Positions 1 to 64,000 of a stretch of DNA of 64,000 nt are shown here, piece by piece. The position numbers were made by a program. Origin of the DNA: Bdellovibrionales bacterium (GTDB lineage: Bacteria > Bdellovibrionota > Bdellovibrionia > Bdellovibrionales > UBA1609); the NCBI GenBank assembly GCA_965219095.1, contig CBDCMT010000001.1, positions 2,333,095 to 2,397,094 of the forward strand, read 5' to 3'. How positions within the stretch are numbered: the stretch's first letter is position 1; each line of letters begins with the position of its first letter.

Positions 1-3000
1 CTGCGGAGAGCAATTTCTAAGAGTGGTATCGATACGGCAATGAGGAGAAGTGCGGTGGCTGGCGCTAGTACGTTAATAGCATCACCAATATTACTATCAT
101 TAGCATCAATAGGGAAAACATTGACAGGCAAAGTTGTAGTAGCAGCAGGTTCTGTAATGATTGCATCAGCATCGGTAGCGGGATCAATATCTGCAATGGT
201 TTGTAGTAAAGTAACTTTATTTTTTTCAAAAAAGAATTAGAAATCAAAAGAACTCTTGTTTTTAAATAGGCCTCTATTCAAGCATGCGGGGGCTTCTCTG
301 TTATAACTTTAAGTGCAACTAAAGCAATGTTAAAAACCAACTTAGATATTTCAGATTTTATGTCATAAAATTTACATATGTTCTTCGAGAAAGATTGTCA
401 ATTAAGATTAAAGCTCACAACGACTTTTTATTTATTAAACGAAAAGCAAATGAGGATTTTAGCTACGGCAAAATCGAAAGCCTAGGGTTGCGGTGGCATA
501 AGCAAGGTATCAAAGTTTACAGATTTATGTCGTCAGACTATTTACAGAGGATTAGAGGAGCTTTCTAAAAGAAGGAATGGTCAAAAAGAAATGTCTTTTT
601 TCGTATATTTCAAAAAACTGGAGAGGACGTCCTTTGATTAATTATATGACTGTAATCAATTTAATATCTAAGACGAAAATCAAGCCTAAAAGTTAAAGCT
701 TGTTTAGATAGAAGAAAATACAAAAAAGGAGAAACAGCGTCTAAAAAGGAGATGGAGTTTATAAAAATTAAGAGAGAAGCATTTCAGGACAAGTGGAATT
801 ATAAAATACTATTACATTTAAGTTATTTTTTAACAGTTCCTAAAAGTTAGGCAATGAGATCTAAAAAACACTGTCTCCAATACAAGGGAGTTTTTGATGA
901 AAACTTTAGAACCAGCTCAAAAATTTTTTGATCCACTCGGGAAGATCTAATCACAATACCATCTAAATTCAAATTCATATCAGGTAAAAACAAATTAAGG
1001 TGTTCTCCTATGAGGTTGTCTAAACTCAAACGTTGCCTTAAATCAACACGCACAAGATCACATCTTGAAATATGAATACAAAAAGCAGTTAGACTTATAT
1101 TTAATAGTACCCCATATTGAGCAATTACACTCTTGTCATAGAGACTTGTAACCTCTTGAATGCCTATCTTTTCAATACATTTTCTAGGTTCTTTTCTATC
1201 TATAAAGTCTAACTTCCTAGCTGACATACAAACACCTCTCTTACCTCTCACTATCTTTATCGTCATAAAAAATAAAAACATTAAGATTTTTAAAAAAATC
1301 ATGTAAATTAAGAGGCATTTTGTTTTTGAAATAAAGAGTGTTAAAAAATGATCCAACTATCTAAAACAGGAGCTGCCACAAACACAATTAAACTCATATT
1401 GATCCATATAAAAAACTTTTTCCAATGGCTAAAGTCATTTTGACTCATAGTAAGACAAATCTCTTTTTTAAAGTACTTTAAAAATTCATAGCCTGTCTTT
1501 AAAGCTATAGGAACCACTAAGATTAAATACATCATATGTGCTGAAACAAAAAGGGGTGAAAGAAGAACTAAAAAGAGATAAAAAAACAAAACTTGTCATT
1601 TATGAGGATGAGGGTCATGGTATTAAAAAAAGAAAAAATTTTCTTGATTGTTCTCAAAAGATTTTAGATTTTTTAAAGACCTCTAAACTATCTATCTCAG
1701 AGGGTTGGAAGTAGATCAAGAACTCTGCAAATAAAGATAACCATTTAAATCCATTTTAGAAGACCTAAAGCCATTGATCAGGTTTATAGGGAAAGTCAAT
1801 AGGACTTTATATAGTGCTTCCGTTTAGGTTTTCAGTTTCCTAAGATAGAGAAGTTATCAGTTATCAAAGTTTCTAATTTAGGTCTGTGTTTTCGTATTCC
1901 TCTAAAAAATTGACTTAAACTTCCCTTGAAATCGTCATAGTTTTCATAATATCGATTCGCCGTGACCTCTTTTTTCATAAACTTCCAAAGCCTTTCTATA
2001 GGATTTAAATTCGGTGAGTACGGAGGAAGATAAATAAGCTTTACATTCAACTCTTTCGCTAACTTCTTGACAGACTTCGATCTATTGTATCCGGCCCCAT
2101 CTAAGATAAGATGAATCTCTTTTTCATCGGGATGCTTCTTAATGAATATGATGGAGCATATCACATAGGAAAACTTCGTTGACTGTCTTATAACTCCTGA
2201 CTACCGTCTTCAAACTATTGATCTCAATAGCTCCACAAACATTCACTCTTTTTCTCCAGCCTGAATTGGTCTTCACTTCAAACTTCTTACCCTCTCTTAT
2301 CCAACCATATGAAATCGTAGGGCCCCACTCAGGATGTGTGGAATCAGCAAAGTAAACAGGACCGTCTTTCTTCTTAATTCTCTTGTATTTACGCACAAAC
2401 TTTTTCTGCTCTTCTCTCTTTGCCTTACCCGGTATCGCTGTGGCTTTTTTATAAGAAAAACTAAGGCGATGGAGAAGATCAATTACACCACTTGTTGAGT
2501 ACGTAACACCAAAATTCTCCTCAATGAACTGAATAACGGTCTGTGATGATGGAAAAATTCTTTTCTCTAATTCCTTTAAAAGCATTTTCTCCTCTTTCTT
2601 AGTTAAAAAGGAGCTTTTAGGGTTGTAATTGTCGTTGATTAAGCACTCTATCCCACCTTTGTTATAACGATCTCTACAGGCTCTTATCGTGCCCTCATCA
2701 ATGAAAAGAAAGCAGGCAATATCTTTACACAACTTACCTTTATCTAAATGGAGAATTGTCATAATCCTTTTTGCGTATTTAAGATTTTTCTCTAGAGATA
2801 GTTCATAGAGTAAATCTTTTCGCTCTTTTTTTGATAGAAACCCTGACATATGAAACTATTTTTAAAAATAAATGACTTTTTATCAAGGCCTTAGAATAAA
2901 AACTAGACCTCAACTCAAAAAAAAACGGAAAACCTAAGCGGAAGCACTATATATGGACATTATATGTGTTAACAAAAACAATCAAAGGAAAGGAATACTA

Positions 3001-63000: not shown

Positions 63001-64000
63001 AATGTACAAACATAAAGATTGTATTGAATTAAGACCTTCTTGTGAAGGTATGGAATCTTTGTACTATAGTTATGATCAGGTTCGTATTGAAGGTTTTGTA
63101 GTAAGCTTGATGAGACGTTTTTAAATGAAAACCCATAGGTTAAAAATTAAGAAAAAAGAAAATATATCAGATAACGCAACTATTTTCACTCTAGAAATAC
63201 CTAAGGAATTAAAGTCAGTTTTTCATTATGTCTGTGGCCAATATTTAACAGCTATTTTAAACATTGATGGTCGTAAAATTGGAAGAGGCTATTCTATTGC
63301 CTCATGTCCTTATACAGATCAAGACATGGAATTTGCTGTAAAAAAAATCCCTCGTGGCAAAACCTCTGTTTATGTAGTCGATAGTCTTAAAGAAGGAGAT
63401 TTTTTAGAGGTTACAACTCCTCAAGGTCATTTCTTTGATACAAGTGAAAACATAGAATCTCTTCATTACGTTTTAATAGGGGCCGGAAGTGGCATCACCC
63501 CTCTTTTTAGTATTTTGAAAACAGTACTTATTGAGAACAAAGATAATAAAGCAACACTTTTTTACGGAAATCGATTTGAGGAAGATATCATTTTTAAAAA
63601 GGAGTTAGATTCTTTAGAAGAAAAGTATAAAAATCGTCTTTTTGTAACACATTTTTTAAGCCAAGCCTCTAACAAGTGGGAAGGTCGAAGAGGCAGAATA
63701 TCAGAAGAAGATATAAAAGAAATGGTTGAGGACTTAAAAACAAAAATACTTCCTATGACATTTTATATTTGCGGTCCTGAAATCATGATGAAAACAGCTC
63801 AAAAAACTATTCTTGATTGTGGAATTGAAGAGAAAAGAATTCATATAGAATGGTACCATGCTCCTCATCCTACAGAGCCTAAGAAAGAACTTTCAGATCA
63901 TCATTCTAAAACTTTGTTAGATTCTGAAAGTGTATTTATAGGTACGGGAGAACCCTCCCTTTCTCCAGAAACTTTAGTGGCTTTTTTAGATGGTGAGGAA

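Follow-up and report, generated by a model that had tools for sequence, protein, structure and literature searches.

How a bacterial chromosome came to be filled to this extent with repeated DNA, mostly insertion sequences (IS), is the question raised by the window analysed here, i.e. the whole stretch of 64,000 nt that ends contig C2 of a Bdellovibrionales genome (G000; C1, 717,612 nt; C2, 2,397,094 nt). An earlier note had read the load as one very recent, still running burst that followed fresh host restriction. In the window, 45.8% of the DNA was repeated and 37.1% was derived from IS, and eight full-length IS and about 40 fragment matches lay in islands between intact gene blocks (Table 1).

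Table 1. Features of the 64-kb window (positions counted from its first nucleotide).
Feature	Position	Strand	Details
IS island	325..6532	.	ISAzo13, IS630-b, internally deleted ISAzo13 and IS1634 remnants
ISAzo13 in first island	3615-4896		transposase 3665-4867
IS630-b in first island	1808-2953 (full); 3277-3609, 4895-5710 (partial)		
Unique core block, 19.6 kb, genes intact	6545..26172	-	H+-pyrophosphatase, Na/Pi cotransporter, ftsY, smc, ftsH, PP-loop ATPase, ABC transporter
IS66, full-length, single-ORF type	26185..27718	-	GTAA...TTAC ends
IS1634-type, full-length, split transposase	28696..30386	-	100% identical to the copy at 45002-46692
clpB and sigma-54 activator gene, DNA mostly unique	30439..35027	-	
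IS481, full-length, young	35969..37182	-	347-aa transposase, TGT...ACA ends
Unique block	37192..44724	.	DUF2157/GDYXXLXY pair, FAD oxidase, SBP_bac_5 peptide-binding protein, arginase-family gene, dksA
Nested island	44757..50269	.	IS1634-type copy 45002-46692 inside IS110-type element
Nested island	51635..57545	.	head to tail IS481, IS1634, ISL3, IS110, IS256, IS481, IS3 (full), IS66 pieces
IS3 element, youngest family	55401..56651	+	orfA 55454-55759, orfB 55756-56622
Contig-end duplicate of C1:220448-229047	55401..64000	.	reverse, 99.99%; begins exactly at the IS3

The IS66 copy has its transposase in two frames, like 28 of the 43 copies of its kind, and its flanks lack a target duplication. 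The IS481 copy adjoins an IS630-a remnant (35483-35969), an IS630-b (49060-50198) adjoins IS630-e pieces in the first nested island, and the second nested island holds a full IS1634 copy at 52173-54099. The IS3 element is identical to another copy and is also without a target duplication. The duplicate at the contig end, 8,600 nt long, was recovered as described before; it carries a response-regulator/TPR gene and lexA, and is either an assembly branch or a structural variant mediated by IS3. All homologues of the window DksA with a visible organism name came from Bdellovibrionales, Bdellovibrionaceae, Bdellovibrio sp. or Bdellovibrionota, which supports membership of the order Bdellovibrionales. 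Closer relatives were represented by DksA proteins at 88% and 70%. The FtsY look-up, with 2 of 10 listed clusters in Bdellovibrionota, gave no guidance on taxonomy, nor did the FtsH search of genome contigs, which gave, among the matches listed, distant phyla only.

Across the genome, self-megablast (matches of at least 200 nt and at least 85% identity) assigned 41.5% of 3.11 Mb to repeats (293,748 of 717,612 nt, 40.9%, in C1, and 999,673 of 2,397,094 nt, 41.7%, in C2), in agreement with the earlier figure of about 41%; the share was 36.5% at identities of at least 95% and 26.4% at those of at least 99%. The unique DNA amounts to 1.81 Mb (about 1.8 Mb had been given) and is divided into 584 pieces, with an N50 of 7.6 kb and a longest piece of 31 kb. 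With our own ORF caller (ORFs of at least 70 aa), 1445 of 3150 ORFs lay more than 80% inside repeats, comparable with the 1647 of 3407 genes counted previously, and 1142 of the 3150 (36%) were transposase ORFs. The repeats are not almost all IS, as had been stated: IS-derived DNA made up 72.7% of the repeat DNA and 31.7% of the genome under a mask that possibly misses some IS110-type pieces, and the non-IS repeats (353 kb) were duplications in two copies, integrase/T4CP elements, ankyrin genes and families of unknown kind. For eleven unknown repeated proteins NCBIfam gave no match, and a weak motif search for group II intron reverse transcriptase and Cas1 gave none among the ORFs. The claim of at least ten IS families held, as IS630, ISL3, IS66, IS1634, IS5, IS982, IS256, IS481, IS3 and ISAzo13 exceeded NCBIfam cut-offs and the IS110 transposase exceeded that of Pfam, 11 families in total. 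Among 1286 IS pieces, 347 were full-length copies, belonging to 30 element types and some with imperfect ends; the most numerous (ISL3, 58; IS630-a, 52; IS630-b, 44; IS66-a, 43; IS3, 28) were of the same order as the counts reported earlier.

As a pattern, these copies accumulated in staggered waves. Mean pairwise divergence was 0.26% in IS3 and 0.37% in both IS481 and IS630-d, and reached 0.94% in IS66-a, 1.9% in ISL3, 2.6% in IS630-a, 2.9% in IS630-b and 3.6% in IS982. Full copies with an identical twin were found in IS3 (16/28), IS481 (5/11), IS256-a (4/8) and IS5 (4/8). Examples of young IS3, IS256 and IS481 copies lie at C2:243700, 558606 and 964052. The very recent activity of the earlier note is supported for these young families, but a single burst is not: divergence in the four largest families is 0.9-2.9%, and in three of these no two copies are identical. 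Terminal inverted repeats were present in the elements, and target sequences were visible as CTAG for IS630-d, TA for IS630-b and A/T runs for ISL3. Matching 8-bp flanks surrounded 40 of 58 ISL3 and 25 of 43 IS66 copies, against about 2% expected by chance, and matching flanks were also seen in 6 of 11 IS481 and 7 of 8 IS256 copies. No matching target duplication was found for 18 of the 58 ISL3 and 18 of the 43 IS66 full copies; such absences might partly reflect mis-joins.

The surviving insertions avoid genes and nest in older IS. Only 12 of 57 insertions in unique DNA had open frames on both sides, compared with 66% of 3000 random unique positions. This count is too low, because older insertions in genes decay and then look intergenic. 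Although unique DNA forms 57% of the genome, it flanked 16 of 90 young full copies and 38 of 228 older ones on both sides, whereas IS flanked 50 of the 90 and 91 of the 228 on both sides, against the IS share of the genome given above. In 78 of 318 cases the copy was inserted into a host IS that continued across it, and the hosts belonged to 22 types. IS481 covers less than 1% of the genome, and 11 of 28 IS3 copies touch it; nesting could also arise from such target choice. A few core-like genes carry IS copies of 100% identity.

The part of the genome that is not repeated appears old rather than freshly decaying. Coding sequence fills 85% of the unique DNA, no more than 15 of 343 conserved genes fell below 75% of the length of their orthologues, and 138 of 166 operon-like pairs were kept; judged from sequence, the core genes seem largely intact and under purifying selection. 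In a quick RpoB tree, from which the partial G030 was left out, the branch measured 0.92 compared with a median of 0.17, the best RpoB identity among the 29 family genomes with a match was 71%, and GTDB holds no congener. These values, together with the avoidance of genes, do not support the fresh host restriction and decay proposed earlier. Of the features of nascent symbionts of the Sodalis or anglerfish type, a large IS expansion with rearrangement was found; mass pseudogenisation and a close free-living relative or short branch were not. Flagellin, chemoreceptors (MCP) and rod/hook domains were not found, as flagellin and chemoreceptors were not in 11 other genera of the family; the non-flagellated genera are mostly 1.2-2.8 Mb in size. 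An orphan flagellar export gate operon (fliOPQR-flhBA) is still present, and six T2SSE-family ATPases with open frames indicate that the type IV pilus machinery is kept. The organism thus shares the type IV pilus with a classical flagellated Bdellovibrio-type predator, and lacks its flagellum and chemotaxis. There were 23 ankyrin matches, compared with 1-2 in the three flagellated contiguous genomes that served as controls.

The chromosome is scrambled and its long-range strand skew is lost, as the earlier note had held. Raw four-fold skew changed sign in 36 of 86 cases, but because gene orientation confounds this count (r = -0.61), a strand-corrected measure was used instead. Its autocorrelation fell from 0.37 (<5 kb) through 0.15 and 0.05 to 0.01 (50-100 kb), compared with 0.43-0.56 throughout in the IS-poor G009. 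The ISL3 and IS66 copies without matching target duplications agree with the scrambling, and the rRNA operon is indeed split, with 16S at C2:188,227 and 23S at C2:1,619,831. IS did not make every such split, however, since G068 keeps long-range skew with about 20% repeats, and murE and murB are also far apart in the IS-poor G007, G027 and G092. Loss of recA or mutL was rejected as a cause, recA being whole and mutL and mutS giving motif matches.

Contrary to the earlier statement that few families were lost, the whole de novo route to wall precursors is absent, in addition to flagellin and chemoreceptors. The genes murA, murB and murE, which 27 of 28 contiguous relatives have, are missing, murE and murA having been removed cleanly in place without a remnant, and MurC, MurI and DapA/F are missing too, so that both the sugar and the peptide would be scavenged. 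The genome keeps NagZ, AmgK/MurU-like, AmpD, LdcA-like, Mpl, MurF, MraY and MurG proteins, and the late wall and division genes are all whole. AmpD scored above its cut-off; Mpl is the best match for its protein, with a score below the NCBIfam cut-off, and the adjacent AmgK/MurU-like pair also scored below theirs. With E. coli queries, AmpG and AnmK were not found, nor were lpxA-D and accA, the latter search having no family control. GlmU is cut short beside an IS island that occupies the expected place of glmS. The gene content points to obligate salvage of wall material from other bacteria, and the lineage seems incapable of building its wall without such fragments. The salvage route needs muramic acid and DAP-tripeptide, which to our knowledge are made by bacteria only; in its niche the organism most likely depends on other bacteria and not solely on a eukaryote. 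G008 shows the same loss of murA, murB and murE and a similar, younger bloom; a clade of both genomes was not rejected by the AU test (p = 0.168), so a single event or two separate ones may underlie the losses common to them.

The load is not unique in Bdellovibrionota, as had been supposed, since G008 and G068, of two other genera of the family, also bloom (at least 20% repeats). In 400-kb samples, the self-repeated share was 20.1% in G008 and 20.6% in G068, compared with a mean of 30.3% in seven like samples of the present genome and 6.1% in G084 (380 kb). Over long matches, its IS were only 65-76% identical to those in the G008 and G068 samples, which gives no sign of recent exchange. Only non-flagellated genera have blooms, but 20 of 26 non-flagellated contiguous relatives have fewer than 15 DDE_Tnp_1 candidates, which means that lifestyle is not sufficient for a bloom. 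Within one genus, G068 has 158 such candidates and G069 has 22. We found no literature report of such an IS load in Bdellovibrionota.

From these results, we consider it probable that the genome underwent a secondary expansion, in which IS accumulated through a self-reinforcing supply of safe havens in an old, reduced, non-swimming Bdellovibrionales lineage; a reduced core within a genome enlarged by mobile DNA is what was measured. The process would have started from the small (1.8 Mb), AT-rich and fast-evolving core without flagellin and chemoreceptors. Small, bottlenecked populations may have let slightly harmful insertions drift, with integrative elements and neighbours bringing in new IS. 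About 30 IS types would then have spread in one wave after another; copies that landed in required genes would be purged, survivors would gather between genes and inside older IS, and every island would widen the neutral target for the following wave. Recombination between copies, with recA intact, and deletions at IS ends could have shuffled blocks of about 10-20 kb, erased the skew and truncated most copies. The wall would be built, after loss of de novo precursor synthesis, through NagZ, AmgK/MurU-like, AmpD, LdcA and Mpl, leading to MurF, MraY and MurG.

A narrower version, in which a non-swimming parasite of other bacteria builds its whole precursor (sugar and tripeptide) from prey wall, the cut-down export gate serves as a contact or uptake device and prey-to-prey bottlenecks drive runaway IS, i.e. 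an expansion driven by bacterial hosts and repeated in the family, is possible, yet we hold it only tentatively. Slightly less credible to us is an intracellular symbiont of a eukaryote, resembling Rickettsia or Orientia, whose wall pathway is decaying or fed by co-symbionts. The ankyrin expansion, the loss of motility, the long branch and the undetected lpxA-D and accA suit it, as does a published 1.59-Mb Bdellovibrionales from a sponge that lacks flagella and was considered an unlikely bacterivore (PMC7313196), but the retained genes are exactly the salvage set, the late wall and division genes are whole, type IV pilus ATPases are kept, and an ATP/ADP translocase was not matched in a search that gave no match in any control either. 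Being an alternative on niche only, it can stand together with the safe-haven mechanism of IS expansion.

Other alternatives concern the load itself. That IS cluster by active choice of targets (IS ends, AT-rich intergenic sites), the load being a near-neutral commensal mobilome that requires no small population, appears improbable: the IS3 copies next to IS481 and the sequence-specific targets speak for it, but the bias spans chemically different families and many host types, and the confinement of blooms to non-flagellated genera is left unexplained. About equally improbable is a single burst, very recent and still under way, that followed fresh host restriction and went with relaxed selection and a decaying genome, as in Sodalis or the anglerfish symbionts. 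The young families, whose identical copies have intact transposases, the few interrupted core-like genes, the export operon as a possible half-way remnant and the shortened GlmU would fit such a burst; however, most of the DNA that stems from IS is fragmented and older, RpoB sits on a long branch, pseudogenes are few, genes are avoided, and the clean removal of murE and murA needs a long time. As the sole story, this model is largely refuted. A load inflated by assembly, with metagenome strains merged or mis-joined at IS, is very improbable. C2 does begin within an IS and end in the duplicate starting at IS3, and over a third of the IS66 and nearly a third of the ISL3 full copies lack matching flanks, but estimated contamination is 0.56%, rRNA, recA and rpoB genes are single, no self-match exceeds 8.6 kb and the second longest measures 5.2 kb, flanks match far above chance, and the copies differ from one another, as do their flanks. 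DNA of this genome was present in four sequencing runs with coded labels, all of one study, and no RNA run was listed as containing it.

A near-record load, as had been suggested, is not supported: Rickettsia rMd of a lacewing has 1,564 IS and 54.81% IS, against 31.7% here, with methods that differ (PMC13375240). Its genome of about 3.2 Mb was likewise doubled by many IS families with core functions kept, and the runaway model, with IS islands as safe targets, was proposed for it (PMC13375240). In the present genome, in contrast, the runaway pattern was measured as nesting and gene avoidance, and the organism seems dependent on bacterial wall fragments, unlike that heritable insect symbiont (PMC13375240). 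Orientia tsutsugamushi resembles it in having about half its genome repetitive, synteny destroyed, and IS, integrative conjugative elements and ankyrin genes, although the repeats there are mainly one ICE (RAGE) and here 73% IS with an ICE-like minority (PMC10732058). Amoebophilus asiaticus also has many IS families, many truncated copies and transposases as 23% of its genes, but it has kept its GC skew and its IS are apparently inactive, whereas the present genome has lost the skew and contains identical, intact copies in several families (PMC3196728). In anglerfish luminous symbionts, transposases form 28-31% of CDS, comparable with the share of ORFs found here, but hundreds of pseudogenes, uniformly dead transposases and retained motility set them apart (PMC6020299). 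In Wolbachia, bursts have come in cycles and left a fossil record, at a load reaching only 11% (PMC3205602). The sponge Bdellovibrionales MAG SP5OBV1 is similarly AT-rich and retains twitching motility; it consists of 57 contigs, and its excerpt reports no IS load (PMC7313196). Tannerella forsythia, an auxotroph for wall sugar, scavenges muropeptides of its neighbours; in the recycling routes, UDP-MurNAc receives the tripeptide through Mpl, and MurNAc is returned by way of MurU (PMC6448482, PMC13046382). The absence of MurA and MurB with late Mur steps kept is common to both, whereas here the stem-peptide route is also gone and AmpG and AnmK escaped detection (PMC6448482, PMC13046382).

The re-inflation of reduced genomes by mobile DNA has been described as an open question (PMC13375240). 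The family offers closed or nearly closed genomes over a wide range of IS load, same-genus contrasts included, and the genome studied here provides direct numbers for the runaway pattern. Its wall-salvage genes would lead to a concrete prediction of the lifestyle of uncultured non-motile Bdellovibrionales and of what a culture of them may need.

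The genome (3,114,706 nt in two contigs, C1 and C2; 34% GC; 94% complete; contamination 0.56%) bears out the share of about 41% repeated DNA given in the earlier note: self-repeats of at least 200 nt cover 41.5% of it at an identity of at least 85%, 36.5% at ≥95% and 26.4% at ≥99%, and they make up 45.8% of the window. Of the 3150 ORFs called with our own software, 1445 are located in repeats, and the unique DNA amounts to 1.81 Mb in 584 pieces (N50 7.6 kb). Thirty IS element types were delimited; transposases of IS630, ISL3, IS66, IS1634, IS5, IS982, IS256, IS481, IS3 and ISAzo13 scored above the NCBIfam cut-offs, and that of IS110 above the Pfam cut-off. 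IS-derived DNA constitutes 31.7% of the assembly and 72.7% of all repeats, in 1286 pieces of at least 100 nt, 347 of them full-length copies; some pieces are counted twice under related types, and several types have imperfect ends. Since 353 kb of repeats are not IS, the statement that they are almost all IS was too strong. Two-copy duplications account for 178 kb of this remainder, and the rest consists of families of about 3-10 copies, including integrases, serine recombinases, a coupling protein, ankyrin, beta-propeller and unknown proteins. Four multi-copy protein families gave no significant match in Pfam or NCBIfam; an IS66-like end adjoins the one with a 358-aa member. Repeats of 3-5 kb carrying integrase and coupling-protein genes, an integrative-element family, are clustered in one part of C1. 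Homologues of the DksA encoded in the window, where an organism name was visible, belong to Bdellovibrionales or Bdellovibrionota.

The reading of a very recent burst holds for the young families only. Full-length copies are grouped in waves by divergence: IS3 has a mean divergence of 0.26% over 28 copies, 16 of which have an identical twin, and IS481, IS256-a, IS5 and IS630-d are roughly as young. The existence of identical copies further shows a low sequencing error. Recent IS activity is likely. However, the bulk of the IS mass belongs to four older families, IS66-a (0.94%), ISL3 (1.9%), IS630-a (2.6%) and IS630-b (2.9%); no identical pairs were found among the full copies of IS66-a, ISL3 and IS630-b, and a frameshift is often common to many copies, for example to 28 of 43 in IS66-a.

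Unique DNA, 57% of the genome, lies on both flanks of 16 of the 90 young and 38 of the 228 older full copies (29 copies of minor types are excluded from these groups), whereas IS lies on both flanks of 50 young and 91 older copies, against an expected 31.7%; in 78 of the 318 a host IS is interrupted and continues across the insert. An open frame of at least 50 codons is found on both sides of 12 of 57 copies in unique DNA, compared with 66% of 3000 random unique positions, and 85% of unique DNA is coding. Strong orthologues in sampled sequence from four relatives were available for 343 genes; only 15 of these are shorter than three quarters of the orthologue, and 138 of 166 operon-like pairs are still neighbours. 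Core genes are protected, and IS pile up on each other. Target choice contributes to the clustering: 11 of 28 full IS3 copies touch IS481, which occupies less than 1% of the genome, at many different positions, and IS3 possibly prefers IS481 as a target.

Scrambling of the chromosome was claimed as well, and it is confirmed. The correlation between genes of the strand-corrected skew at four-fold sites falls with distance from 0.37 (<5 kb) through 0.15 (5-20 kb) and 0.05 (20-50 kb) to 0.01 (50-100 kb), while in the IS-poor relative G009 (360 kb) it is steady at 0.43-0.56; among IS-rich relatives, long-range skew is gone in G008 and kept in G068. The 16S and 23S rRNA genes are 1.43 Mb apart; they are unlinked in G084 too, and linked in G008, G068 and G009. 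A serine-recombinase-family fragment stands in place of 23S after 16S and a tRNA gene, so the operon may have been interrupted by an integrative element. The cluster of division and cell-wall genes is split over three sites, and two of the breaks carry IS; murE and murB are far apart also in some IS-poor relatives. Matching target duplications, expected by chance in about 2%, are kept by 40 of 58 ISL3, 25 of 43 IS66, 6 of 11 IS481 and 7 of 8 IS256 copies, so that a third of copies in the larger families have lost their original flank. The recA gene is intact. At the end of the window, 8.6 kb that begin with the first base of an IS3 are a duplicate of C1 sequence, a local assembly branch or variant with no effect on the totals.

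An unexpected result is that genes of de novo wall-precursor synthesis have been lost and the salvage set retained. Genes for MurA-class enzymes, MurB and MurE are each found in 27 of the 28 contiguous relatives; G008 and the present genome lack all three. The murE gene has been excised, leaving ftsI directly next to murF, and murA is gone from its place after prmC, the next conserved gene lying 9 nt away; with such clean junctions, the absences do not stem from gaps in the assembly. The Mur ligases number only three: MurD, MurF and one that is Mpl-like; murC was not found. The Mpl-like ligase scores 348 bits for Mpl and 302 for MurC, both below cut-off. Its top two PDB entries (260 and 213 bits; MurC at most 156) were taken as Mpl, the second by its title; the other, 3HN7, is assumed to be Mpl. 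The gene clusters with ldcA and ampD. Escherichia coli queries found no MurI, DapA, DapF or GlmS, although those for MurI, DapA and GlmS recover orthologues in sampled relatives (DapF is without this control). GlmU is shortened to 334 aa with the uridyltransferase half kept, and NagZ, Alr, Ddl, MraY, MurG, FtsW, FtsI and adjacent AmgK-like and MurU-like genes are retained; G008 likewise has such a pair (L256). By established wall-recycling biochemistry (PMC6448482, PMC13046382), such a gene set can assemble lipid II solely from muramic acid, GlcNAc and DAP-tripeptide obtained by salvage, and for that reason the cell probably depends on other bacteria. No muropeptide importer was identified in the genome; one candidate for tripeptide uptake is the SBP_bac_5 peptide-binding protein that a unique block of the window encodes. 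With E. coli queries, used here with no family control, lpxA, lpxB, lpxC, lpxD and accA were not found. In literature searched mostly without subscription papers, a wall auxotrophy for both sugar and peptide was nowhere reported for Bdellovibrionota.

Domain searches detected no flagellin, chemoreceptor or rod/hook domain; type IV pilus ATPases are kept, and strong ankyrin matches number 23, versus 1-2 in flagellated controls. The genes fliL-fliO-fliP-fliQ-fliR-flhB-flhA-flhF-fliA persist as frames that are open though diverged (FlhA 592 aa and FlhB 219 aa, both truncated); a short FliF of 316 aa is encoded elsewhere, and comparison with G009 gave no match for fliM/N/G/H/I. None of the other flagellin-less genomes of the family, 47 in all with this one, keeps such an operon, which may be left over from a flagellum or may serve as an export gate with a new role; PMC6456723 mentions orphan export cores.

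Coordinates of features discussed in the text
Feature	Position	Label	Remark
Orphan flagellar export operon	C2:942582-950352	L219/L220	
Short FliF	C2:1413298-1414248		
Multi-copy family, 11 members	C2:230574-233273	L019	no significant Pfam/NCBIfam match
Multi-copy family, 10 members	C2:175774-176850	L021	no significant Pfam/NCBIfam match
Multi-copy family, 10 members	C1:90996-91844	L027	no significant Pfam/NCBIfam match
Multi-copy family, 3 members	C2:65943-68978	L035	no significant Pfam/NCBIfam match
Integrase and coupling-protein repeats	C1 about 411-506 kb		
Serine-recombinase-family fragment	C2 about 189,850-190,400	L001:3122-3700	
Wall-precursor loss/salvage loci	C1:198716-203548; C2:158740-161858, 603108-604921, 1407547-1411362		
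Wall-precursor loss/salvage loci, continued	C2:1511335-1516077, 1927759-1928763, 2216189-2220416		
SBP_bac_5 protein	window 40690-42291		
IS3 beside IS481, example	window 55029-56651		

Within the family (109 genomes, 35 genera), the genome is extreme in IS630, with 241 candidates against at most 23 in a relative among the matches listed (17 of 108 relatives match). It is not alone in IS load: in a set of 29 genomes with no more than about 10 contigs each, DDE_Tnp_1 candidates number 345 in G008, 228 here, 158 in G068, 42 in G084 and 22 in G069, and integrase-core candidates 117 here, 65 in G008, 42 in G068 and 41 in G090. Self-repeats cover 20.1% of G008 and 20.6% of G068 (400-kb samples) and 6.1% of G084 (380 kb); as seven like-sized samples of our genome average 30.3% where the true value is 41.2%, scaling extrapolates to roughly 25-30% for G008 and G068 as a whole. 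Repeats of G008 are younger (16.8 of the 20.1 points at ≥99% identity), and the blooms of G008 (L122-L141) and G068 (L142-L161) differ from the present one in family and age. Flagellin, counted at a strict threshold and confirmed for four genomes at E 0.001, follows genus lines, being present in 62 of 109 genomes and absent from 12 whole genera including the present one; these form a large group of apparently dependent Bdellovibrionales. Many of the 47 flagellin-less genomes are 1.2-2.5 Mb and ankyrin-rich (116 matches in G027, 50 in G010). All IS blooms seen fall in flagellin-less genera, most members of which are IS-poor, though only three flagellated genomes were contiguous enough for comparison. 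In a quick RpoB tree our genome has a long branch of 0.92 (median 0.17), and G068 and G084 belong to two different clades, both supported. A clade of our genome with G008 is not rejected (p = 0.168).

The IS load is real and very high. Its proposed rank among the highest recorded stands insofar as it belongs to the top tier of compared genomes, but it is no record: according to PMC13375240, Rickettsia rMd carries 1,564 IS amounting to 54.81% of 3.25 Mb, against 31.7% here. Other papers give about 50% repetitive DNA in Orientia (PMC10732058), transposases at 28-31% of CDS in anglerfish symbionts (PMC6020299) and 23% of genes in Amoebophilus (PMC3196728), and 11% in Wolbachia (PMC3205602), and describe one sponge member of Bdellovibrionales that is small and non-flagellated (PMC7313196). 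Literature searches on IS-rich or symbiotic Bdellovibrionota, made mostly without subscription papers and without supplements, found such a load nowhere reported. The phenomenon is known: the rMd authors use the term secondary genome expansion and propose that IS islands drive it as a runaway process. What is new is its occurrence in a wall scavenger that apparently depends on bacteria, together with the measured nesting bias. The data are best read as secondary expansion in several waves, with the core protected, in a lineage that is old and reduced; such expansion recurs in the family.
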